Virus record (IMG/VR): IMGVR_UViG_2648501334_000005
Length of the DNA: 26,609 nt
Strand: one strand, 5' to 3'
Origin: a virus
Lineage: Duplodnaviria; Heunggongvirae; Uroviricota; Caudoviricetes
Shown one piece after another: positions 1,462 to 26,383 of this stretch. The position numbers and the translations under genes are program-made. Each line of letters begins with the position of its first letter. The first letter of the stretch is position 1. Below the pieces are notes generated by a model. The model had not been told where the DNA came from. It worked only from the letters and a program-made list of their open reading frames with translations, and searched no databases.

Positions 1462-5142
<3,681 letters not shown>

Positions 5143-5168
<26 letters not shown>

Positions 5169-5688
5169 TCAGCAACCCCGGTATCAGTTCATCCAGCGCG
5201 GCTGCTTTGTTCATGGCTTTGATGATATCCCGTTTCAGGAAATCAATATGCCGGTTATCCAGCTCAGGAAAACGTCGCTGCACCGACAGAGGAATACCGT
5301 CGAGAATACTGGATATTTCCCTTGCTATACGCGACAGCACGAAAGTACAGAATGCGGTTTCCACCACTTCAGCCGATTCTTTGGCATTTTTCAGTTCCTG
5401 CGCCGTCGCCTGAGCACGGGTCAGGCGATGGCGCTCAAATTCAAGTGTTCCGGGGTGAAGATCTGCCTCGCTGGCCAGCCGCAGTTCTTCAACCTCCCGG
5501 CGCAGCTTTTCGTTCTCAATTTCAGCATCCCTTTCGGCATACCATTTTATGACGGCGGCAGAATCATAAAGCACCTCATTACCCTTGCCACCGCCTCGCA
5601 GAACGGGCATTCCCTGCTCCTGCCAGTTCTGAATGGTACGGATACTCGCACCGAAAATATCAGCCAGCTGCTTTTTGTTGACTTCCAT
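5143..5688 (-). CDS. Nu1: Terminase small subunit Nu1, 181 aa
   Basis: Track ORF. MEVNKKQLADIFGASIRTIQNWQEQGMPVLRGGGKGNEVLYDSAAVIKWYAERD... matches lambda gpNu1 (winged-helix N-terminus). Confidence 0.95.
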
Positions 5689-5699
5689 TGTTCATTCCA

Positions 5700-5880
5700 C
5701 GGACAAAAACAGAGAAAGGAAACGACAGAGGCCAAAAAGCCCGTTTTCAGCATCTGTCGTTTCCTTTCTTTTCAGGGGGTGTTTTAAATAAAAACATTAA
5801 GTTACGGCGAAGAAGAACGGAAACGCCTTAAACCGGAAAATTTTCATAAATAGCGAAAACCCGCGCGCCTTCCGCCCCGT
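5700..5880. promoter_or_regulatory. cos: cos site: lambda-like cosB (terminase/IHF binding region) plus a cosN-equivalent 12-mer at 5866-5877
   Basis: Minus-strand reading of 5700-5865 is almost identical to the lambda left end just inside cosN (CGCGGGTTTTCGCTATTTATGAAAATTTTCCGGTTTAAGGCGTTTCCGTTCTTCTTCG...), immediately upstream of Nu1. The 12-mer at the cosN position reads GGGCGGAAGGCG on the minus strand, versus lambda GGGCGGCGACCT. Confidence 0.8.
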
Positions 5881-5948
5881 AGCCTGCCGGATCGCCGGAA
5901 AGGACCCGCAAAGGTGAGAATAATTATCACTTGCATTAATATCCGGCT

Positions 5949-6120
5949 TCTTCCACCATCGCACCGGACGGGCGACTATGAGGGACAAAAACCGCGCACC
6001 ATAAACGCGGTAAAAACCCGGTGTGCATCGTTTTTGATTATTCCCACACACTCGCGCAGAAGGAGTTCCCCGTCGGGCTACGGTCATGGTTAATGCGGGA
6101 ATACAGCGACGATACAGCGC
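5949..6120. repeat. Direct repeat copy A (~172 bp), left flank of the AT-rich cassette
   Basis: Aligns by eye with 7734-7904 at roughly 85-90% identity in the same orientation, with shared blocks such as GGTAAAAACCCGGTGTGCATCGTTTTTGATTATT and AGGAGTTCCCCGTCGGGCTACGGTCATGGTTAATGCGGGAATAC. Confidence 0.75.
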
Positions 6121-6236
6121 ATGATGTGTCAGGCTTGAATACCTTTATCCGTTAAAAGGGATATCAGTTAAGTTATCCCGTGTAGGGTATAAGCCATTAT
6201 CAAAGCCACTCAGTAGCGAATGGCTTTTGTAATGGA

Positions 6237-6686
6237 CTATTTAATTAGTGATGCTGCGTATTCGATTAGATATAACTTAGGTGCCAGCCAAATTTTTAAC
6301 CATGTCATATTGGCTACTACAGAAATAATAAAACTGAACCATAGAATAAAAACTGCTACTAATGGCAAGACAAAACCACTTAACCTACCGTCACTTTCCC
6401 AAATCATAGTCGGTTTGTATTTAGGCTGTCCATTATCACATGAGCGTCCTTCATTATCGAACTTACCAATTTCAACTTTTTTGCACTGTTTCTTCATAAA
6501 CCAAATAACCAGCGGGATTGTTGAAATGGCTATTAATGTTTTAATCAGGCTATCAACCATATTCCATACCAGCAACTGATGAACAACATCCGGAATCTGA
6601 GCCTGACTGAATGCAATGGCGGAATCAATTCCATCGCTGGCCTTCTTCAATAAATCAACAAGAATTTTATTTGCTTCTTCTTGCAT
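6237..6686 (-). CDS. Hypothetical small membrane protein, 149 aa, two predicted TM helices; second gene of the AT-rich cassette
   Basis: Track ORF with ATG at 6686..6684. Hydrophobic stretches LIKTLIAISTIPLVIWFM and LSGFVLPLVAVFILWFSFIISVVANM. Visibly AT-rich compared with the flanking lambda-like DNA. No family recognised. Confidence 0.6.
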   Translation of the reverse strand: MQEEANKILVDLLKKASDGIDSAIAFSQAQIPDVVHQLLVWNMVDSLIKTLIAISTIPLVIWFMKKQCKKVEIGKFDNEGRSCDNGQPKYKPTMIWESDGRLSGFVLPLVAVFILWFSFIISVVANMTWLKIWLAPKLYLIEYAASLIK

Positions 6687-6810
6687 ATTTATATCCTGTA
6701 AGTTGTAAGCCTGTTCGAAAAAAAATAAACAACTACGAGAGACAGAAAAAATATCTCAGGCTCTCTTTCTATAAGCTTTTAGTTGAGGATGTTCTGCAAA
6801 ACAAAACTGG

Positions 6811-7671
6811 TTAGTTATGTAACTGCTTCCGGAATACAACAGCCGACGTGCTACAACGTAAAATTCGCTTGATTGTGGCAGTTGAGGAAACAGACTTGCA
6901 TTTCTCAACATCATCAATAATGACCACATCCGGTACAGGAATGACGCGGGTATGCAATGTTTTTGCACTAATAACATCACAGCCATTCAGTGGTCGAATA
7001 TCTGCATCTTCAGGCACTACCAGAAGCACACGTTTTTCCGGTGCAGAAAAGCCAGCAGCAAGAGTGCGTGACAATAAAGTCATTCCGCTGCGTGGCTTCA
7101 TACAAATTTCAGAAATATGATTCTTTTCGTCCAAATGATGCTGGACATCATTTTTATCATCACTCAACAACTCTGCTGTTAATACAATCCCTGCTGTCTC
7201 AGATTTCCAGGAAATGCTGATATCCTGATCATCTGCATCAACATCATATTTCATCGAGTAAGGACTAAAGCTACGTCCAACGAACGCATCATTTACCAGT
7301 ACACGCCCACCCTGTCTGACCTGAAAGTCAACGCGCCCTGAAAGCTGATTTGCTGTTACAAGCAATGCCTTTTTTCTTTTTGTTTTATTGCTCATTGCCA
7401 CCAACTGTTCAGCCATCTCTCTTGTCACACTACCAGAAACTCTTTCTTGAATTTTCACAGAAAATTTTCTGGATGTAGTAGCATCGACATTAAAAAATCT
7501 GGATGTCATCAGGCAGTTATTAACAATTGGCATCAGCTCACTTACGATTGTAAAAAATTCCCGGTAAAGCTCATTTTGCTTTTCAACACACAGCTTTCCA
7601 CAATCGTCCAGCTTACGCTCAAGAGCACTTAACCTTTCCATTATTGAATTAATTTTTTGCAACTCTTTCAT
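6811..7671 (-). CDS. Hypothetical protein, 286 aa, coiled-coil-like N-terminus; first gene of the AT-rich cassette
   Basis: Track ORF 6811..7932 trimmed to ATG 7671..7669 (MKELQKINSIMERLSALERKLDD...), which has an AGGAGG Shine-Dalgarno 5 nt upstream (plus 7677-7682). The upstream extension (MRPWSH...) runs through the repeat and palindrome and is not coding. No family recognised. Confidence 0.65.
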   Translation of the reverse strand: MKELQKINSIMERLSALERKLDDCGKLCVEKQNELYREFFTIVSELMPIVNNCLMTSRFFNVDATTSRKFSVKIQERVSGSVTREMAEQLVAMSNKTKRKKALLVTANQLSGRVDFQVRQGGRVLVNDAFVGRSFSPYSMKYDVDADDQDISISWKSETAGIVLTAELLSDDKNDVQHHLDEKNHISEICMKPRSGMTLLSRTLAAGFSAPEKRVLLVVPEDADIRPLNGCDVISAKTLHTRVIPVPDVVIIDDVEKCKSVSSTATIKRILRCSTSAVVFRKQLHN

Positions 7672-7694
7672 CAAAACCTCCTGACAAAGATACC

Positions 7695-7712
7695 GTGCGA
7701 CCACGGTCGCAC
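7695..7712. promoter_or_regulatory. sopC-like 18-bp palindrome GTGCGACCACGGTCGCAC, copy 1 (candidate SopB centromere site)
   Basis: Near-perfect inverted repeat with arms TGCGACC/GGTCGCA, differing in one arm position from the F sopC core TGGGACCACGGTCCCA as I recall it. Lies 24 bp upstream of the 286-aa gene start. Confidence 0.5.
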
Positions 7713-7733
7713 GCTCCTGAATACATGCCCTGT

Positions 7734-7904
7734 TTCTTCCACCCTCGCACAGGACTGGCGAGCATGAGGGACAAACCCGCGAATCATTAGCACGGTAAAA
7801 ACCCGGTGTGCATCGTTTTTGATTATTTCCGCACACTCGCGCATAGGAGTTCCCCGTCGGGCTACGGTCATGGTTAATGCGGGAATACGGCGACGATGCA
7901 GCGC
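7734..7904. repeat. Direct repeat copy B (~171 bp), right flank of the AT-rich cassette
   Basis: Partner of 5949-6120. Bracketed by palindrome copies 1 and 2. Confidence 0.75.
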
Positions 7905-7914
7905 GGAATTTAGC

Positions 7915-7932
7915 GTGCGACCACGGTCGCAC
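7915..7932. promoter_or_regulatory. sopC-like 18-bp palindrome GTGCGACCACGGTCGCAC, copy 2
   Basis: Identical to copy 1. Lies between repeat B and the DUF4406-like gene. Confidence 0.5.
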
Positions 7933-7951
7933 ACGAGAAACAAAGAGATTT

Positions 7952-8263
7952 TTATACTGCAGAGGAACAAGCTGGCGGGTAATTCAGCGTAGTGAATACC
8001 GGCATATCCATCTTGTATGCGTAATGATACTCAGCAGTTGCTCCAGCAGACGCTTTCCAGCCAGGAAGCATCAAAATAGCATCAGCACAACGAAGCATTG
8101 CAAAGCAAATATCCATGTATTCACGTTGCGTCAGACCATTAGGCAAAGTGGCTGGATTCAAGACAGAGTGACCATGTCGTGACAAACGATCTGCCTCTTT
8201 ATTAAAGGCGTCACGATTAAAGTTCTCATATCCCGTCATTGGCCCGGCAATATAAATTTTCAT
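7952..8263 (-). CDS. DUF4406-like (nucleoside 2-deoxyribosyltransferase-like) small protein, 103 aa
   Basis: Track ORF. N-terminal MKIYIAGPMTGYENFNRDAF motif is typical of the DUF4406 family common in prophages. Confidence 0.65.
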   Translation of the reverse strand: MKIYIAGPMTGYENFNRDAFNKEADRLSRHGHSVLNPATLPNGLTQREYMDICFAMLRCADAILMLPGWKASAGATAEYHYAYKMDMPVFTTLNYPPACSSAV

Positions 8264-8304
8264 TCACTATCCAACAAATTGAGCTCGTTTTTGATATAGA
8301 GGGA

Positions 8305-8742
8305 TTAATTCAGGCATTGCGTCTTGATGTATTCCTGCAAGTAGTTAACCTGCGCAGTTATCCTGTCGATCCCACTTCGGAGACGGTAATAATTGAGTTC
8401 AGCATCTGCTGTAAGTCTTGGGCTTTCTCCATTGCCCATGCCGCTGGCTCCGGTCGTTGACTTTGCACAGGTGGCGGCGACTTGCAGGCGCTTACGCCCA
8501 GCAGAAACATCAGCACGGAGGCTTTCGATAGTCGCGTTAGCATCAGCAAGCTCCTTTGTATATCTGGCATCGAGTTCTGCTACGTCACGTTGACGCTTCT
8601 GCATATCAGCGATTGTGGATGTGGCTTTATCACGCTGCTCTTTGTAGGCGATGGCGTTATCACGGTAATGATTAACAGCCCACGACAGGCAGATGATGAT
8701 GCAGATAACCAGACCGGAGATAATCGCGGTTACCCTGCTCAT
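8305..8742 (-). CDS. Rz: Rz i-spanin (inner-membrane spanin), 145 aa
   Basis: Track ORF 8305..8754. [39 protein letters not shown]... resembles lambda Rz (N-terminal TM helix, then coiled coil). Start placed at ATG 8742..8740, which overlaps the R stop as ATGA, like lambda. Confidence 0.85.
8358..8543 (-). CDS. Rz1: Rz1 o-spanin lipoprotein embedded in Rz in the +1 frame
   Basis: Track ORF 8358..8570 lies wholly inside Rz in another frame. Lipoprotein-like signal [10 protein letters not shown] followed by a proline-rich stretch [16 protein letters not shown]. Start is uncertain (Met at 8570 or at 8543). Confidence 0.6.
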
Positions 8743-9239
8743 TGTTGACCCCACAAACAGACTTCACGCTCAATCTCACGACGAGTCATCAGGCCTTTCC
8801 ATTGCTTACCGCCAGCAGATATCCAGCGACGTAGCTGATCACATGCGCCTTTGATATCGCCCTGGTTTATTTTGCGAAGAAGCGTCGATGTTCTGAAATT
8901 ACCAGCGCCCACGTTATAGACGAACGAATAAAGAGCGCCGCGCGTTGTTTCCGGTATATCGACTTTGATGTACGGGTTAATTTGTCTGGCGACAGTGGCA
9001 AGGTCTTTATTCAGGAGAGCTTTGCATTCTGCTTCGGTATACGTTTTACCTAGCATGATGTCTTTTCCAGTGTGTCCGTAACATACAGTCCATACACCAA
9101 CAATATCTTTGTATGGTATGTAACTGACACCTTCCAGACCATCGTTACCACTTGGGCCAGTGATGAGCATAGACGCTATGGCAATAGCCCCGCCACCAAT
9201 AGCAGCTGTGACAGCTTTGCGTAATGATGACTGCATCAT
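8739..9239 (-). CDS. R: SAR endolysin (T4-lysozyme family, GH24) with N-terminal signal-anchor-release domain, 166 aa
   Basis: Track ORF. Glycine/alanine-rich weakly hydrophobic N-terminus [20 protein letters not shown], followed by a catalytic region [25 protein letters not shown] with E/D/T spacing like phage 21 / P1 lysozymes. Confidence 0.9.
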
Positions 9240-10680: not shown

Positions 10681-10815
10681 AGCTATTATTTTTTTGCCTG
10701 GGTAAGCTAACCCGGCGATGCGCATCGCGGGTGGGCTTTAGGTTCAGCCTATAGCTCTGGCATGGGTTGACCGCAGGACAAGCTGCAACTTGTCCTGCGC
10801 CCACTTTTCAGGCAC

Positions 10816-10838
10816 AAAAAAACCGCCATAAAGGCGGC
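10816..10838 (-). terminator. Intrinsic terminator, tR'-like, upstream of the methyltransferase and lysis genes
   Basis: Minus strand reads AAGCCGCCTTTATGGCGGTTTTTTT: a GC stem, 5-nt loop and 7-U tract. Confidence 0.5.
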
Positions 10839-10924
10839 TTGTTGGCTGTTGGGTACAAAAAACCCAACTTAACAAAACAATAACTAAAAACCGTCATTTT
10901 GCCAAGCTTTTTCGTTTTTGTGCT

Positions 10925-10942
10925 GTGCGACCGTGGTCGCAC
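10925..10942. promoter_or_regulatory. sopC-like 18-bp palindrome GTGCGACCGTGGTCGCAC, copy 3
   Basis: Same arms as copies 1 and 2 with the centre inverted. Lies in the intergenic region between the 75-aa ORF and the tR'-like terminator. Confidence 0.5.
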
Positions 10943-10947
10943 AGCTT

Positions 10948-11175
10948 TTAGAAAGTTGCCTGCTTATATTCATCGGTCAAAGAATATCGACCAGATCCGC
11001 TACGCTTTGCAACCCCAAAACAAATCATCTGTTCGATGATAAATTCAACGGCAGCTTGACTCAAAAAACAGGCTTCGCTTAACTCTTTCAGGGAAATGCG
11101 TGGGTATCCACGCATAACACATTCCACACTCAGGGCCGCTTCAGTCATATTTCCACGAATTTCATTAATATTCAT
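10948..11175 (-). CDS. Hypothetical protein, 75 aa
   Basis: Track ORF in an operon-like array. No family recognised. Confidence 0.4.
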   Translation of the reverse strand: MNINEIRGNMTEAALSVECVMRGYPRISLKELSEACFLSQAAVEFIIEQMICFGVAKRSGSGRYSLTDEYKQATF

Positions 11176-11575: not shown

Positions 11576-11887
11576 ATGTTTAACGTGATAACCCACCCTG
11601 CAGCACTGGATGAACTGCTTGAACTACCAGATGATCTGCGAGGTCGCATGACCAGATTAATTGAGCGACTGGAGAAAGAAGGCAACAAACTGAAGATGCC
11701 CCATAGCCGTGTAATAGGTGGAGGGCTTTTTGAACTACGAGTAGGGGATAAAAACATCGCAAGAACGCTGTACGCCTACGCGACTGGTAACGAAATTTAT
11801 CTATTGCATGCATTTGTAAAAAAGACACAGAAAACACCGGTGAAGGCTATCGAAATCGCCAGAACTCGCCTGAAGGAGATGAACTGA
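11576..11887 (+). CDS. Type II toxin, RelE/ParE superfamily (HigB-like / Gp49-like), 103 aa
   Basis: Track ORF. C-terminal LFELRVGDKNIARTLYAYATGNEIYLLHAFVKKTQKTPVKAIEIARTRLKE matches the Gp49/HigB-like consensus. GGAGG Shine-Dalgarno before the ATG. Stop overlaps the next ATG (TGATG). Confidence 0.75.
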   Translation: MFNVITHPAALDELLELPDDLRGRMTRLIERLEKEGNKLKMPHSRVIGGGLFELRVGDKNIARTLYAYATGNEIYLLHAFVKKTQKTPVKAIEIARTRLKEMN

Positions 11888-12174
11888 TGAAAGCGAAAGG
11901 CATCCCGTTTAACGAAGTAAAAGAAAAACTCCTCAACACTCCAGAAGCCGTCAAAGGATATGAAGAGGCCGACAAAGAGCTGGAGATGGTCGAAATGTTA
12001 TACGAAATGAGGGAAAGAGCAGGTTTAACGAAATCAGCTCTGGCTGAACGAATGGGGTTGCGACCGTCAGCCATCAGCCGCCTGGAAAGCAATCCTTTAG
12101 GGGCAAGTATGAAAACTTTGGCTAAATATGCTCATGCCTGCGGCGCAACCATCGATATTCGCGCTGTTTATTAA
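11887..12174 (+). CDS. HTH XRE-family antitoxin (HigA-like), 95 aa
   Basis: Track ORF. Helix-turn-helix segment LTKSALAERMGLRPSAISRLESN. Translationally coupled downstream of the toxin, in the toxin-first order typical of HigBA. Confidence 0.75.
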   Translation: MKAKGIPFNEVKEKLLNTPEAVKGYEEADKELEMVEMLYEMRERAGLTKSALAERMGLRPSAISRLESNPLGASMKTLAKYAHACGATIDIRAVY

Positions 12175-16192: not shown

Positions 16193-16493
16193 TTTCTTGT
16201 GCGACCACGGTCGCACCCTCTCTGATTTCCAAGTAACGCTTAATCCAAAGATTTTCTATATGCTTATTACCTGGCTGATTTGATAAATACCAATCGGCAA
16301 TTACAGACTGCTTATTACTATCTGGCCGTGTCCTGTAACCACAAGTTGGACACCAGATAACATATTCATTTCTTACCCCCGAATACCTTAATTCTGGCTT
16401 CGACGGTTTCCTGAACATAACTTGTTTACAAAGGCAGAATGGCACTTCCTGCCCGATGGCGTTTGATGATTTCACTGCGCTTCTCCGCCGCAT
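16173..16493 (-). CDS. Zinc-ribbon protein, possibly Lar-family restriction alleviation protein (start uncertain)
   Basis: Track ORF. YVIWCPTCGYRTRPDSNKQSVIADW resembles the Lar-family pattern of CxxC followed by an AIxAW motif. The 3' end encodes ATVVAQ across palindrome copy 4. Confidence 0.35.
   Translation of the reverse strand: MRRRSAVKSSNAIGQEVPFCLCKQVMFRKPSKPELRYSGVRNEYVIWCPTCGYRTRPDSNKQSVIADWYLSNQPGNKHIENLWIKRYLEIREGATVVAQENENNAI
16199..16216. promoter_or_regulatory. sopC-like 18-bp palindrome GTGCGACCACGGTCGCAC, copy 4
   Basis: Identical to copies 1 and 2. Lies in the 3' end of the Lar-like ORF, just upstream of the next gene start. Confidence 0.5.
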
Positions 16494-18280: not shown

Positions 18281-21200
18281 ATGACATTAAACGATTTCTA
18301 TGCGGATCGCTTTGGCAGCGATCCGTTCTCGCTAATTGAAGCAGCACGGGATGAACTAACCGAGCTGGCACAGATGGCTGGTATCAACTGGCCTGCCTGT
18401 TCCGACAACATCCAACTCAACCCTCGCGGGGGGGTTGAGCGTTACTCTTCATACAATAAAACATCTCCAGAAGCTCTCGAAAAGAGCCTGAAAGGACGCG
18501 TAGAAATTTACTCCAGGCTGGAACACAGCAAAGGGATTGATTACCCGTTCATTAACTTCGTCCATAAAGGCAGCGATGCTGGCTCATGGAGCGGTTTCTC
18601 CTTCCTGTTTTCTGAATATCGCCGTGAGCAACAACGGAATAATGCGACCGTGGTCGCACAACCGGAAGAAGAACGGGAAAGAATAGAACGTCAGGCCGAA
18701 GCACGTCGTCGCCGTGAAGAACAAAAACGAATTAATGACCTGAAAAACAACCAAATGGACCATGAACGTTTGCTGGGATGGCTGGCATTCCACAGCGCGT
18801 GGGAACATGCTCCGGCTGAAGACGGCTCATGGCCATATGCGATTAAAAAAGGTATTCGTGACGTTTTTAGTTCATGTGATGTGCGTCGCGTGACCAGTCA
18901 CGACAGTGCGAAATGGAGCCGGGGGCCAACCACATATATGGCTATCCCTCTGGCTCACCTGGACGGTCGTTATGATGGTCGTATTGTGGGTTGGCAGCGA
19001 ATCGACAAACAAGGTGGGAAATACCAGACCAGCGCAGTAACCAGCGGCGATTTCGTCGGTGCCTGCTTTGTTATCGGTGAGCTGAAAGGGGCGCAAAACA
19101 TCGCTGTTACAGAAGGTTTTGCTACTGGTGCATCCATCTGGCTTGCCACGAAAAAAGATAAACGCTTTGACGCTGTGGTTGTCGCTGTATCCGCTAACAA
19201 CATGGTTCATGTTGTGGAACAACTGGTAAACATGTACCCGGCGGCAAAAATCACCTGCGCACTGGATAATGACCGGAAATCTGCCACAGAAGGAAAAGGG
19301 AATACAGGCCTGCGGACTGGCTATGAAATCTTATCGAAATTCAACGATGTCCGCTGCGTCTATCCAACTTTTGAAGACGATCCGCAAATGGAGTGCAGTG
19401 ACTTCAACGACCTGCACAAACTACGTGGACTTCGTGAAACAGCACGTCAACTATTTGCAACAGCAAACCGCCTGAAAACCGGTACTGATTTGCTATCTCT
19501 GACGCTCAACCGCCTGAAGACAATTAAGCGGGATAACCGTCGTACTTTTGCCAAAGAGCTGCTGAGAGCGGTGGATATTGGCATGCTAACCTGTCCGGTT
19601 CCTAACAGTCCGTCAGATTTATTTAACATGTTCTGCATCGTTCTGCGTGAAATGGGACTGGAAAATATCTATCGCGCTACGGTAAAAGACCACATTGCCC
19701 GTCGCCTGAATAAAAAGTGCCGTATTGCCCAGGCTCCGCGCTCTTTCAGCGAACGCATAACTGATCCCAATAAACGCCCTCAACATATCACCTATAAGCG
19801 TTTTGAAACTTCGGTAATGACCGATGATGTCCTGAAGTACGTGCAATCACTACAGGGGATAGTCATCGTCCGTGCTGGTATGGGTTCCGGCAAATCTACT
19901 GGATTGTTACGACCGTTAATGCATAGCTCAGAACGTGGTATCTCTGTTGCTCACCGTGTCTCCCTTATTGGTGGCCTGTGGGAAATGATGACAGAAGGAA
20001 AAGGTGTAAAAGCCGATATCCTGCACTATCAGGATCCTGGCTATCAGGAAATGGCTCCATACGCCAGTAAACTGACCATCTGCATAAACTCGATTGTTAA
20101 AAACTGCTGGCAACCGTTGATGCGCCAGCACGACTATTTTGGCTTTGACGAGGCCACACAAGGGCTACGTGCCGTTCTTTCCGGTCGGGCTATGGAAAAC
20201 CCGGTGGCTGTATTCAATACGCTAATTGACGCGCTGGCCAGAACGGAACAACACCCAATCATGGTAGATGCTGATGCGAACGATCTGCTGGTTGACCTGG
20301 CTGAACTGGCTATGAAACGCCGTGAAGAACTAGGTTTACCGGCATGGCTGCAGATCCACGTAATTGAATTACCTGTTGATGTTCGCAACCGCGAAACAGG
20401 TGAGCCAATCCGGGTTTTTTATACAGAAAAAGATCGCATCATGACCGAGGTGGTGAAAGCTGTATCGGATGGCGAAAAAATCATGTTGGCCACCGACAGC
20501 TCCACCTTTGCAGAAGATGTGACAGCCACCCTGAGAATGCATTTTCCTGGTAAGAAATTTCTGTGTGTAAACCAGAAAAACAAACCAGAGCCAGAAGTTG
20601 AAGCATTTACCAATCAACCGAAAAAGATGGTCAAAAAATACGACGGCCTGATTTATAGCCCGTCTATTTCATCCGGCGTGTCGATTGAGCAAAAACATTT
20701 TGACCGTCATTTCGGCATGTTCTGTGGTGAAGTTGTACCCAGCGACGCAGTGCAAATGCTACGCCGCGACCGTACAGCAAAAGAATTTATTATCGGCTTT
20801 GATAAAGCTCGTGCAAAACGTGAAACTGACCCGCAAAAAATAGAACGAGCATTCGCCCAGGCATTGCTTGCTACCGCAGGTATGAACGGTGAACTGACGG
20901 ATGTCGTTTTCGATGGCGACCGTATATCAATGGGGGTGGCCAATACCGACTTTACCAGGATGAAAATTAAAGCAGCCGCAATTGAAGCGACTGCGCGTAA
21001 CGACTACGCCAGCAACATGATCTGCATCATGCACAGCGACGGTTATAAGGTATCGCCGCTGGCCACCGATTATGCTGCGAATGATATCGGTAAAGATCTG
21101 CGTAAAGAAGCGCGGGATATTGTGTGGGAACAGACACTGGATCTGCACCTCAATACAGAAACTCCACAAGAATCAGAGCGTGAAGAACTGCTAAAAAAAC

Positions 21201-23504: not shown

Positions 23505-23644
23505 TGGCCTTTGATTAACGATCAACTTCTGATCACTCGTTCAAGCAAACTATAAAAACACCTGTCCCCGTGACTGGTCACGGGGTAAAATGTCTTTGCA
23601 AATTATTGACGTGCGCGTCGTTTTGACGGTAAAGTTTACTCCGC

Positions 23645-23717
23645 TACGGTAAATCCCGTAGCCGGGCGTAGGAACCCGAGTAAATGAAGCGCACAACACG
23701 CGCCAGCGTGTTTTTTT
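23645..23717 (+). ncRNA. Candidate c4-like antisense/regulatory small RNA of an immI-like anti-immunity locus
   Basis: Possible promoters with TTGACG -35 boxes at 23606-23611 and 23623-23628. Hairpin GCTACGG-TAAATC-CCGTAGC. Intrinsic terminator at 23696-23717 (ACACGC-GCCA-GCGTGT followed by T7). GTAGGAA motif (23668-23674) is complementary to TTCCTAC (23801-23807) in the icd leader. Boundaries are approximate. Confidence 0.3.
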
Positions 23718-23880
23718 GTGTGTAAAATCTGCGTACACCAAATTTATGGTGGCTCAGATGGGGCAGCTTTTAGCTGGCCGGTTTCTTCGTTTACCGGTAT
23801 TCCTACCCCCGTCTGGGCTACCGCCATATAGAGCGTAGGAACTCTGGTGGTAGCACGACCAATTAAACGGAGTGCATACC

Positions 23881-24481: not shown

Positions 24482-26383
24482 TTATCCGAAATATGTCAGC
24501 CATGCTAACTGCATTGCTGATATAGGGCTGTTTGCACTGCCGGACCAAGCATAATTCTGGCCATTATAATGAAACTCAACAACGTATGAGCCATCACCAA
24601 TATTTCTCACAGGCTTAAATACCGGCTTAGATACAGGTGAAGAAGGCGCGGGCGGTTGCTGTTCTTCTACGCTCTCTTCCTCTTCCTCTTCCTCTTCCTC
24701 TATCTCAATTTCGTCGTCATCCAGATCGTCATCCTCTGATAATTCATCCGTCTGTTCAGGTATTGCTTCCAGCTCTTCTTCGTCAGGCATAACGATTTCT
24801 GGAGAATCTATTTTCAGCTGCCATTGTCCATTTTCGCCAACAAATTGCCCCAGAGCATCAGCAGCAAATTCCAGGTATCGACTAATCATTGTAGGGCTAA
24901 ATTTGAATGCTCTTAGAGTGCTGTTCGTGATTTTTATAGAGGGGTCCTGCTCTACCAGCTGCTTAACTGTGTTATGCAGACGAACTCCGGCATCTCCTCT
25001 GGCGAATCCTGGCATTTCGTCATCAAGCTGCTGCAATGCTTCCAGCCTGGTATTTTCGTTTCCAGTATTTGGCCTCCATGTCTTTGAGAAGTTGGCCAGC
25101 TTGAATTGCTTATAGTGTAATTGAGTGTTTTCATCGTCATGGCCTAAAATTTCCATAAAGAAAACATCCTCATCTACGTTTTTCCAACGAGGATCTACGC
25201 GGAAAAACATTTCATACGCAATACGGGCATAAATAGCACGACTATCTTTATAAACACGGCGGTCATCTTTGAAAAATGATTTAACCCACGGGTTAAAAGC
25301 CTTTGCTAATATGGCATTAATCCGTCCGTTTTCAGAGCGTGTGTCGTTATCTCCATAACCTTTAACGACATCATCAAAATCAGATGCTGCTGGGCATGAG
25401 CGAAGTACATTTATTAAATAAACAAATGTTTTTGCTTCGCATAATGTATATATTTTTCTGGTTATATCATCAGAAGTTCTTTTTTTTGCTTGGCCTAAAA
25501 AATCAACGGTATACTTACCAGAAACAGTAAATGTACCTTGATACATAATCTCAATCATTCGTCTTCCAGACAATGCAGCAAGTGCAAATGCCAAAGGAGC
25601 CATACCTGAACGAGTGTTTAGATTATTTAATGTAGCAGGGCTATTTATAATATCGTAAATAGCTTGCATATATTTAGGGTAATCAATGACCACTACGTTA
25701 CGTTTCTTATTGTGCAGAACGTCTGCCCATCGTTGCTGGATAGATGCGCGTTCGGCAGGGCTTAGTTGAAGATGATAGAGAATCTCATGGTTAACTTTTA
25801 GCTGATTCAACTCCTCAAGTAAGGCAGATCCTTGCTGTAGTAATTTATATAAATAATCGCGCTTATCTTTCCAGTTATCGCTAGTTAAATCAGAAATGGC
25901 GAATTGCCACTCTTTATATTTATTTGATAATTTTAATAACTTATTATGACTTTTGTTATCACCAATTCTGATATTAGATAAATCTTCTGATAAAGGGAGA
26001 ATTAATTTTAATTTTGCCTGTAAAGCTGACATTCTCTGGCGAATATCGGCAGCAGGTAGAGAAAGCCATGATAATAGCTCCTCATTATATAAAGGATACT
26101 TTTCAGATAGGCGATGTATATTTTTTTCAAAGCTATGATGAAGTTTATCATCAAACCGTTTTCTGGCCCTGCTCATATAGGCATTGAATGTGTTGGCTGT
26201 AATTCTTTTTTCTAATCCTTTCCCCCTAAACTTTCGCTTGTCATTAAATAATGCATTTTTAAATTTTAATGCAACAGCTTTTATTTTTTTTGTTTTTTCC
26301 CCTTGAGGACGGTCAGAGTTATCTATTGACTCAACATCGCTAACAAGTGAGTTTATTAATTCACCGATTTTTACTTTGCTCAT
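24482..26383 (-). CDS. telN: Protelomerase (telomere resolvase) TelN, 633 aa
   Basis: Track ORF. MSKVKIGELINSLVSDVESIDNSDRPQGEKTKKIKAVALKFKNALFNDKRKFRGKGLEKRITANTFNAYMSRARKRFDDKLHH... tracks N15 TelN (about 631 aa) as I recall it, including the acidic C-terminal stretch. Strong AGGAGAGG ribosome-binding site. Confidence 0.92.
   Translation of the reverse strand: MSKVKIGELINSLVSDVESIDNSDRPQGEKTKKIKAVALKFKNALFNDKRKFRGKGLEKRITANTFNAYMSRARKRFDDKLHHSFEKNIHRLSEKYPLYNEELLSWLSLPAADIRQRMSALQAKLKLILPLSEDLSNIRIGDNKSHNKLLKLSNKYKEWQFAISDLTSDNWKDKRDYLYKLLQQGSALLEELNQLKVNHEILYHLQLSPAERASIQQRWADVLHNKKRNVVVIDYPKYMQAIYDIINSPATLNNLNTRSGMAPLAFALAALSGRRMIEIMYQGTFTVSGKYTVDFLGQAKKRTSDDITRKIYTLCEAKTFVYLINVLRSCPAASDFDDVVKGYGDNDTRSENGRINAILAKAFNPWVKSFFKDDRRVYKDSRAIYARIAYEMFFRVDPRWKNVDEDVFFMEILGHDDENTQLHYKQFKLANFSKTWRPNTGNENTRLEALQQLDDEMPGFARGDAGVRLHNTVKQLVEQDPSIKITNSTLRAFKFSPTMISRYLEFAADALGQFVGENGQWQLKIDSPEIVMPDEEELEAIPEQTDELSEDDDLDDDEIEIEEEEEEEEESVEEQQPPAPSSPVSKPVFKPVRNIGDGSYVVEFHYNGQNYAWSGSANSPISAMQLAWLTYFG

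Follow-up and report, generated by a model that had tools for sequence, protein, structure and literature searches.

The 26,609-nucleotide viral DNA deposited as IMG/VR record IMGVR_UViG_2648501334_000005 (Caudoviricetes), which at its full length is called the window below, carries two co-oriented minus-strand genes between its lysis genes and cos: ORF286 (open reading frame, ORF, of 286 aa; 6811-7671) and ORF149 (149 aa; 6237-6686). With moderate confidence, the pair is explained here as an accessory (moron) cassette in the variable lysis-cos interval of an N15-like linear plasmid-prophage, where recombination at conserved linkers put it together. The insert itself is of an already known, lambdoid type, situated in a slot between the lysis genes and cos whose content varies among relatives, while the two genes within it are separate modules with separate histories. 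An earlier note, made from the sequence alone, had placed both genes correctly and had put them forward as a candidate for an undescribed two-gene defence or abortive-infection module; the first part was borne out, since both frames are open and under purifying selection, while the second was not.

The source element is an N15-like linear plasmid-prophage, because the window has genes for a TelK-type protelomerase (24482-26383), a 1331-aa RepA-like protein, a lambda-type Nu1/A terminase, a lysozyme and Rz, and because it is matched by Escherichia phage PhiR46_1 (97.6% identity across the region of interest) and by YDC107_1, classified as Ravinvirus. The gene order on the minus strand is as follows: late promoter/terminator, DNA methylase, holin, R, Rz (8305-8754), DUF4406 (7952-8263), a block made of an inverted repeat (IR), repeat B and another IR, ORF286, ORF149, a conserved tail with repeat A, cos (~5890), Nu1 (5143-5688) and A. 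The repeats, the tail and the palindromes are listed without a strand.

Insertion and deletion states in relatives

An empty site was present in the N15-like plasmid NZ_CP148365.1, which reads Nu1-cos-single repeat-IR-DUF4406-Rz and in which window segments 5100-6120 and 7734-8800 are contiguous via one repeat copy. Because of this empty site, and because the length of the unit equals the repeat spacing, the 1785-bp low-GC (guanine plus cytosine) unit represents a repeat-bounded insertion/deletion, consisting of the tail, ORF149, ORF286, one SopB palindrome and one repeat copy. The comparison of presence and absence across relatives, proposed in the earlier note, thus yielded the repeat-bounded indel that the note had anticipated from the acquisition of the cassette as a unit by recombination; to this can be added that the palindromes also serve as joints.

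Further arrangements were found among other relatives. Loci L010-L013, with ORF286 at ~91-94% identity, have the order DUF4406-IR-ORF280-ORF149-tail-repeat-cos and lack the 220-bp unit of repeat B plus IR, while L011 and L012 possess an additional IR between the repeat and cos. The more distant L014/L015 (80% identity) read Rz-tail-repeat-IR-ORF276-cos, with neither ORF149 nor DUF4406. In phage YDC107_1 and in four plasmid records, a recurrent natural deletion of 834 bp (window 6253-7093), bounded by 7-bp GCTGCGT microhomologies, has removed ORF149 and the C-terminal quarter of ORF286. The linker and the SopB palindromes are therefore the joints of differing arrangements: empty, ORF286 alone, ORF286 with ORF149 in the absence of repeat B, and internally deleted. 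Other cargo in the Rz-cos interval of relatives includes Rha, YlcI/YnfO, Iss/Bor, DUF1398/YbcV, a TonB-like protein, KilA-N, GIY-YIG and Gp49, and in N15 itself the interval holds a C5 methyltransferase and gp59. Like lambdoid morons, the cassette is missing in a collinear close relative and has a base composition unlike that of its flanks.

The two genes also part from each other. The ORF286 relative in L014/L015, ORF276, occurs without ORF149, and the relatives of ORF149 are nearly always found without ORF286: tblastn with ORF149 gave matches in 181 phage records, while ORF286 is present in only 2. The DNA homology to other phages spans exactly the ORF149 reading frame. Comparison of the window with PhiR46_1 showed one difference in ORF286 and 20 in ORF149, and with L011 the pattern was reversed, i.e., the alleles reassort. 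The genes of ~300 aa adjoining the ORF149 relatives in phages HF4s and HK633 were unrelated to ORF286. Hence, ORF286 and ORF149 are not obligately linked, and their pairing is facultative both ways.

Base composition, repeats and linker

The earlier impression that the cassette is AT-rich relative to its neighbours was confirmed by a GC profile that is not uniform: 38.7% in the cassette (36.4% in ORF149 and 40.8% in ORF286) vs 49-54% in the flanks, with 53.8% in the terminase genes, 54.3% in the IR/repeat B stretch and 47.3% in the whole window. The GC content at third codon positions was 0.34-0.36 in the cassette genes vs 0.53-0.61 in Nu1/A.

The imperfect direct repeats that had been described as ~170 bp long are real, albeit slightly longer, ~189 bp: the cos-proximal linker copy, repeat A (5932-6120; direct-repeat families D1-D3), and the second copy, repeat B (7718-7904), are identical at 164 of 189 positions (86.8%) and have a spacing of 1784-1786 bp. 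Repeat B and the distal palindrome are duplicated together as a 220-bp unit (direct repeat D4, spacing 220); in the 90%-identical relatives L010-L013, where repeat B is missing, window position 7911 joins 7710. Repeat A is adjoined by the conserved tail (6121-6236), whose hairpin at 6202-6227 reads as a plus-strand (antisense) terminator; a 106-nt stretch of it (6130-6235) recurs, 90-97% identical, in 2552 of 5426 complete E. coli genomes and bears the annotation 'terminator' in phage Ayreon. The linker is single-copy in the empty-site relative L021 and in PhiR70_1, in the latter beside a ybcV module, and 108 nt of the repeat A linker are present in lambda (46868-46974) between bor and p78. 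More generally, a sizeable proportion of the lambdoid prophages of E. coli have a linker of ~190 nt with the 106-nt tail next to cos.

The repeat is treated as a conserved non-coding linker of lambdoid phages because its reading frames disagree between the copies: ORFs inside it were rejected, as the frames on both strands differ between the two copies. A search of Rfam gave no match at either gathering or E-value thresholds, with the AgvB and AsxR families included and neither of them matched. Identity with the published Pas small RNAs was also rejected: PasA, PasC and PasD adjoin holin/lysozyme genes and PasB lies within structural genes. RNAalifold analysis of six repeat copies produced a plausible fold with several hairpins, including a terminator-like one at 6011-5991, and only three covarying pairs; the single-sequence folding z-scores were not significant.

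ORF286, an elaborated relative of post-Rz proteins

ORF286 is open from an ATG at 7671, located behind the AGGAGG ribosome-binding site (minus strand, 7682-7677) that had been pointed out before and was read again from the sequence. A longer, GTG-initiated frame through repeat B was rejected as not conserved because close relatives lack repeat B. The ratio of nonsynonymous to synonymous substitution rates (dN/dS) was 0.24 against an 80%-identical homologue, indicating purifying selection. The protein matches phrog_2571 end to end (E = 2.3e-163, residues 1-286 on profile positions 1-291 of 291) and no hydrophobic segments were seen in it, in agreement with a soluble protein; its predicted layout comprises a helical hairpin, a beta domain and a small alpha/beta domain. 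The coiled-coil-like N-terminus suggested earlier was recovered as a predicted helical hairpin (residues 2-56), albeit in an AlphaFold2 (AF2) model of low confidence (predicted local distance difference test, pLDDT, 55.6).

Full-length relatives, of at least 80% identity, are restricted to Escherichia and Shigella and almost all of them are located on non-mobilizable plasmids, mostly of 42-50 kb, which are N15-like elements. An exhaustive HMMER search against 1.84 billion representatives recovered only same-family fragments and two partial relatives. In line with the earlier note, which had recognised no family for either protein, no named one was found: ORF286 had no match in Pfam and NCBIfam and, in PADLOC (PADLOC-DB v2.0, library of 2023, covering the systems described up to 2023), only a noise-level hit to DrmMII (E = 0.023, 11.6 bits), while a domain-wise Pfam search at E <= 10 gave noise only.

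A profile of the central domain (residues ~100-170; window 7100-7400), on the other hand, recovered stand-alone proteins of ~74 aa with E-values down to 1e-38 and 35-48% identity, which match phrog_2571 profile positions 100-172. The genes of these small proteins follow Rz without a gap, their start codon overlapping its stop codon, in many lambdoid prophages of E. coli and Salmonella, whether the terminase is of the lambda or the HK97 type, and a 181-aa relative, combining the central domain with a coiled coil, is encoded between Q and the holins. The loci bearing on this family are L026-L030 and L023. Since its central domain is homologous to the post-Rz 74-aa proteins, ORF286 appears by sequence to be an elaborated member of a late-operon protein family and not foreign to phage lytic biology.

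The C-terminal domain was inspected separately. Its resemblance by eye to a Toprim or receiver-like domain (VLLVVPEDAD and VVIIDDVEK, with invariant acidic residues) was dropped for want of search support: the isolated domain had no Pfam hit at E <= 10, its best match in the PDB profile search had E = 0.3, and Foldseek against the PDB with the low-confidence model gave none at E <= 1e-3, only weak helicase/KaiC/PilT matches. Pairwise and profile comparison found ORF286 unrelated to its positional analogue, N15 gp59. The latter (L005, 45696-46319) resembles J-like tail-fibre proteins in its PHROG matches (phrog_2589 and phrog_31).

ORF149, a member of a widespread two-transmembrane family

The frame of ORF149 is open, with a dN/dS of 0.22 vs phage HF4s, again indicating purifying selection; for both genes, the comparison was made with the most divergent homologue that could be used. 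The protein is a member of phrog_3054 (E = 4.1e-57, residues 1-149 on profile positions 1-137 of 137) and contains the two hydrophobic helices noticed earlier, at residues ~43-65 and ~102-126. The N-terminal (1-42) and C-terminal (127-149) helices are almost invariant within the family, while the loop and the transmembrane helices are variable. Most of the positive charge is held by the loop, which hints, from the residue composition, that the termini may face outward. An AF2 model showed four helices (pLDDT 67.8) and found no match in a BFVD fold search.

The homologues formed 490 clusters, none with a Pfam domain. ORF149 itself had no match in Pfam, NCBIfam or PADLOC, and a Pfam scan of 28 of its homologues together with five distant phage relatives gave noise only. 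In the P22-like phages HF4s and CUS-3 and in lambdoid HK633, the relative is the next gene of the leftward early operon past N, or past N and ral, and DNA similarity to ORF149 extends to a part of Sf6 gene 34. Others, all confirmed as phrog_3054, are early/middle or replication-region genes of the virulent phages phi92 and SP-058 (N4-like) and of a Vibrio and a Pseudomonas phage. In lambda, the post-N interval is occupied by sieB, on the strand opposite to the orientation of the ORF149 relatives. Identity with SieB (PF14163) was rejected: neither ORF149 nor the 28 homologues matched in Pfam, and hhalign against lambda SieB gave a probability of 0.12%. A relation to RexB was rejected likewise (hhalign probability ~0.1%).

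The 20 amino acid differences that set the ORF149 of the window apart from that of PhiR46_1 are confined to residues 61-125 (6310-6505), i.e., the loop and the second transmembrane helix, while the termini are identical; for this pair of alleles the dN/dS was 0.67 vs 0.22 in the distant comparison. Such a pattern could result from diversifying selection or from recombination between alleles.

SopB palindromes and expression

The palindrome GTGCGACCACGGTCGCAC at 7695-7712 is the core of the proximal, IR4-like palindrome (7695-7715, inverted repeat I2) and ends 23 nt upstream of the ORF286 start codon. The sopC-like element reported in the earlier note thus has an exact N15-type core, while its distance had been given as 24 and a second, distal copy (7912-7932, core 7915-7932, direct repeat D4 with a spacing of 220) had been missed. 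The 18-bp core GTGCGACCACGGTCGCAC is identical to the cores of the N15 centromere IR1/IR4 oligonucleotides (PMC7205306 Table 4). Altogether, five N15-type palindromes are present in the window (7696-7711, 7916-7931, 10926-10941, 16200-16215 and 18643-18658), where 0.01 is expected by chance. Their placement mirrors that of N15 IR1-IR4: inside repA, after Q, before the late promoter (10926-10941, just upstream of it as N15 IR3) and before the last gene ahead of cos. A palindrome is located ~39 bp upstream of each ORF286 homologue examined. By its sequence, the element is a genuine N15-type SopB site, with predicted SopB binding. The genes of the sop system are located beyond the window.

Around 10720-10960, with an IR just upstream, the window is 88% identical to the stretch annotated in N15 as late promoter and terminator. 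From there it is 3-4.6 kb downstream to the cassette, which has the same orientation and is followed by cos and the terminase genes; in the relatives lacking repeat B, the gap between DUF4406 and ORF286 is only 60 bp, with the IR inside. A consensus scan, which would miss weak or non-consensus promoters, found no sigma-70 promoter upstream of either ORF286 or ORF149. The only strong hairpin past ORF149 reads as a terminator for the opposite strand, and none was found on its own strand. Because an N15-like late promoter is situated upstream in the same orientation and no consensus promoter was found, the simplest reading is that ORF286 and ORF149 are transcribed in the Q-dependent late operon, as inferred from the sequence. 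Expression in the prophage, which a defence gene would need, finds no support but may occur, e.g., from a weak promoter.

Neighbouring genes and RNAs

The protein encoded between Rz and the cassette (DUF4406, 7952-8263) is nucleoside 2-deoxyribosyltransferase-like. Its N15 homologue is gene 57, followed there by a C5 DNA methyltransferase that is absent from the window. Embedded within Rz, on the minus strand, is a frame (8358-8570) whose lipobox-like motif, LLGVSAC, would fit an Rz1-type outer-membrane spanin, in which case the lysis genes form a full set even without ORF286 and ORF149. A Gp49 (HigB-like) and helix-turn-helix (HTH) pair at 11576-12174 is probably a toxin-antitoxin module (cf. 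N15 genes 49/48). Finally, an isrK Hfq-binding RNA and a C4 antisense RNA, both with Rfam matches above the gathering score, are located side by side at 23643-23828, a pair that resembles the antisense immunity region of the P1/P7 type.

Interpretation and alternatives

In the explanation favoured here, that of an accessory cassette, the late operon would extend from the late promoter through the methylase, holin, R, Rz, DUF4406, ORF286 and ORF149 to cos and Nu1; with transcription from it, both proteins would therefore be made mainly in lytic growth and less in the quiescent plasmid-prophage. ORF149 would reside in the inner membrane, with its activity borne by the conserved amphipathic helices of its N- and C-termini, which may act at one membrane face. 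The most probable role of the protein would be a membrane-level interference, e.g., superinfection exclusion at the DNA-entry step, or another step of host takeover; a role of this sort might be useful in any infection, because phages of very different lifestyles encode the family, usually early. ORF286 would be a cytoplasmic late protein and a lineage-specific elaboration, in which a coiled-coil hairpin and a small alpha/beta domain are joined to the post-Rz beta domain. The proximal palindrome would represent the backbone IR4 partition site (in N15, IR4 holds the equivalent place, just before the last gene ahead of cos) and may double as a hairpin or a SopB roadblock ahead of ORF286, and, as the earlier note had suggested in tying expression to the partition protein, SopB bound to the IR could modulate read-through into this gene, since the Sop system of N15 is reported to affect the expression of late genes. 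The whole cassette would be dispensable cargo. The functional part of this mechanism is proposed by analogy and with low confidence.

Several points weigh against this explanation. Most copies of ORF286 do adjoin ORF149 (448-member cluster P0001; 19 full-length plasmid copies), so that some looser functional link between the two is possible. Superinfection exclusion by ORF149, which may apply, is drawn from the distribution of the family, the membrane topology and analogy. The models of ORF286 and ORF149 are of low confidence (pLDDT 55.6 and 67.8, respectively), so that an enzymatic fold could be hidden in ORF286, and a weak promoter of the cassette's own would have escaped the consensus scan.

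The same adjacency also speaks for the module that the earlier note had put forward: a new two-gene abortive-infection or defence system, in which ORF286 would sense the infection and ORF149, as a membrane effector, would kill or arrest the cell. A soluble protein next to a small two-transmembrane protein, both of uncharacterised families, in an AT-rich mobile cassette of a variable slot would suit such a system, as would the presence of ORF149 relatives in that post-N interval of P22-like and lambdoid phages where lambda has sieB. The genomic record speaks differently: ORF286 exists without ORF149, the relatives of ORF149 are almost always without ORF286 and have unrelated neighbours in other phages, the family extends to virulent phages, the alleles reassort independently, the central domain of ORF286 is that of a family whose genes follow Rz among the late lytic genes, the 834-bp deletion, by which both genes are destroyed, circulates in YDC107_1 and four plasmid records, and the position is within a late operon, with no promoter detected in the consensus scan. 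PADLOC, Pfam and NCBIfam gave no match to a defence model, SieB and RexB are dissimilar, and the PADLOC, PDB profile and fold searches, which the earlier note had recommended, produced nothing significant for either protein; SNIPE, a system of one protein (PMC13190303), is unrelated. The specific grounds for defence thus fall away, although the cassette may still serve in competition between phages. Overall, a two-gene defence system is considered decidedly unlikely, and a more elaborate version, in which phrog_3054 would be a widespread inner-membrane exclusion family coupled in N15-like elements to a sensor-like ORF286, the two forming an exclusion/abortive module gated by SopB, very unlikely.

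A lysis-associated accessory, where ORF286 and perhaps ORF149 would adjust the timing of lysis or the function of spanin or holin, or would act at or after lysis, draws on the 74-aa homologues overlapping the Rz stop codon in many prophages, on the place of the cassette, which follows the lysis genes directly within the late operon, and on the predicted inner-membrane location of ORF149. It is nevertheless unlikely: the window already has a holin, an endolysin, Rz and the embedded Rz1 lipoprotein frame, cassette-free relatives exist, and the ORF149 relatives elsewhere are early genes far from lysis genes. Highly improbable is a plasmid-addiction (toxin-antitoxin-like) module with ORF149 as the membrane toxin and ORF286 as its antidote: two small co-oriented genes beside the SopB sites of a low-copy plasmid-prophage, lost together in the 834-bp deletion variant, would agree with it, but the ORF149 family extends to virulent phages and is represented in many prophages by a solitary gene, ORF286 occurs alone, the gene order and the 124-bp spacer are atypical of toxin-antitoxin operons, and the window has the Gp49/HigB-HTH pair already. 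Equally hard to credit is a bor/iss-like lysogenic-conversion or virulence moron. While bor in lambda and iss in relatives occupy the same slot and low GC is typical of morons, both products lack a signal peptide and a lipobox, ORF286 is predicted to be soluble, and the genes are, unlike bor, co-oriented with the late operon, with no promoter detected.

As one further accessory cassette in an already known lambdoid/N15-like variable slot, the finding is of modest importance. The locus, nevertheless, provides a clean natural case of module shuffling at conserved linkers, including plasmid partition sites, with the empty, single-gene, two-gene and deleted states all available in sequenced relatives. 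The two families reach further: phrog_3054 is large, is prominently placed in the early operon beside N in many lambdoid and P22-like phages, is present in virulent ones too and has no recorded function in Pfam, NCBIfam, PADLOC or PHROGs, so that assigning one would annotate many genomes, and the post-Rz 74-aa family, common in E. coli and Salmonella prophages, has no name, Pfam domain or function in the libraries used.

Comparison with known systems

The closest counterparts of the cassette are the lambdoid Rz-cos morons (lambda bor/p78/p79, DLP12 borD-ybcV-ylcI and N15 genes 58-59), with which it shares the slot, the presence/absence among near-identical relatives and the low GC content; a part of its flanking linker even stands beside bor in lambda. 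The cargo differs, Bor, YbcV, YlcI and N15 gp59 being unrelated to ORF286 and ORF149, and so does its arrangement: the cassette genes point the same way as the late operon, no promoter of their own was detected and ORF149 is followed by no terminator on its strand. The post-Rz 74-aa proteins resemble ORF286 in being homologous to its residues ~100-170 and in belonging to the late operon downstream of Rz, while ORF286 has in addition a coiled-coil hairpin at its N-terminus and an alpha/beta domain of ~90 aa at its C-terminus, both predicted, and is parted from Rz by DUF4406 and the IR/repeat block.

ORF149 has in common with the other phrog_3054 members (Sf6 gene 34, VT2-Sakai p20, CUS-3 ECRS218_0047 and phi92 gp220) the end-to-end profile match, the two-transmembrane layout and the conserved terminal helices, whereas the copies of other phages are in early operons and ORF149 is at the end of a late one. 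SieB of lambda and P22 and RexAB of lambda are likewise small inner-membrane phage proteins, and relatives of ORF149 sit in the interval that sieB occupies in lambda; in contrast to ORF149, however, SieB and RexB belong to families with no sequence or profile similarity to it, its own family is also found in virulent phages, and lambda sieB is transcribed the opposite way, while the ORF149 relatives run with the N operon. Finally, the palindromes share with N15 IR1-IR4 the 18-bp core GTGCGACCACGGTCGCAC and the dispersal over the element, with the difference that the IR4 equivalent occurs twice, its duplication having included repeat B, so that there are five sites vs the four of N15, and that a single site also accompanies ORF286 homologues in ordinary-looking lambdoid prophages.

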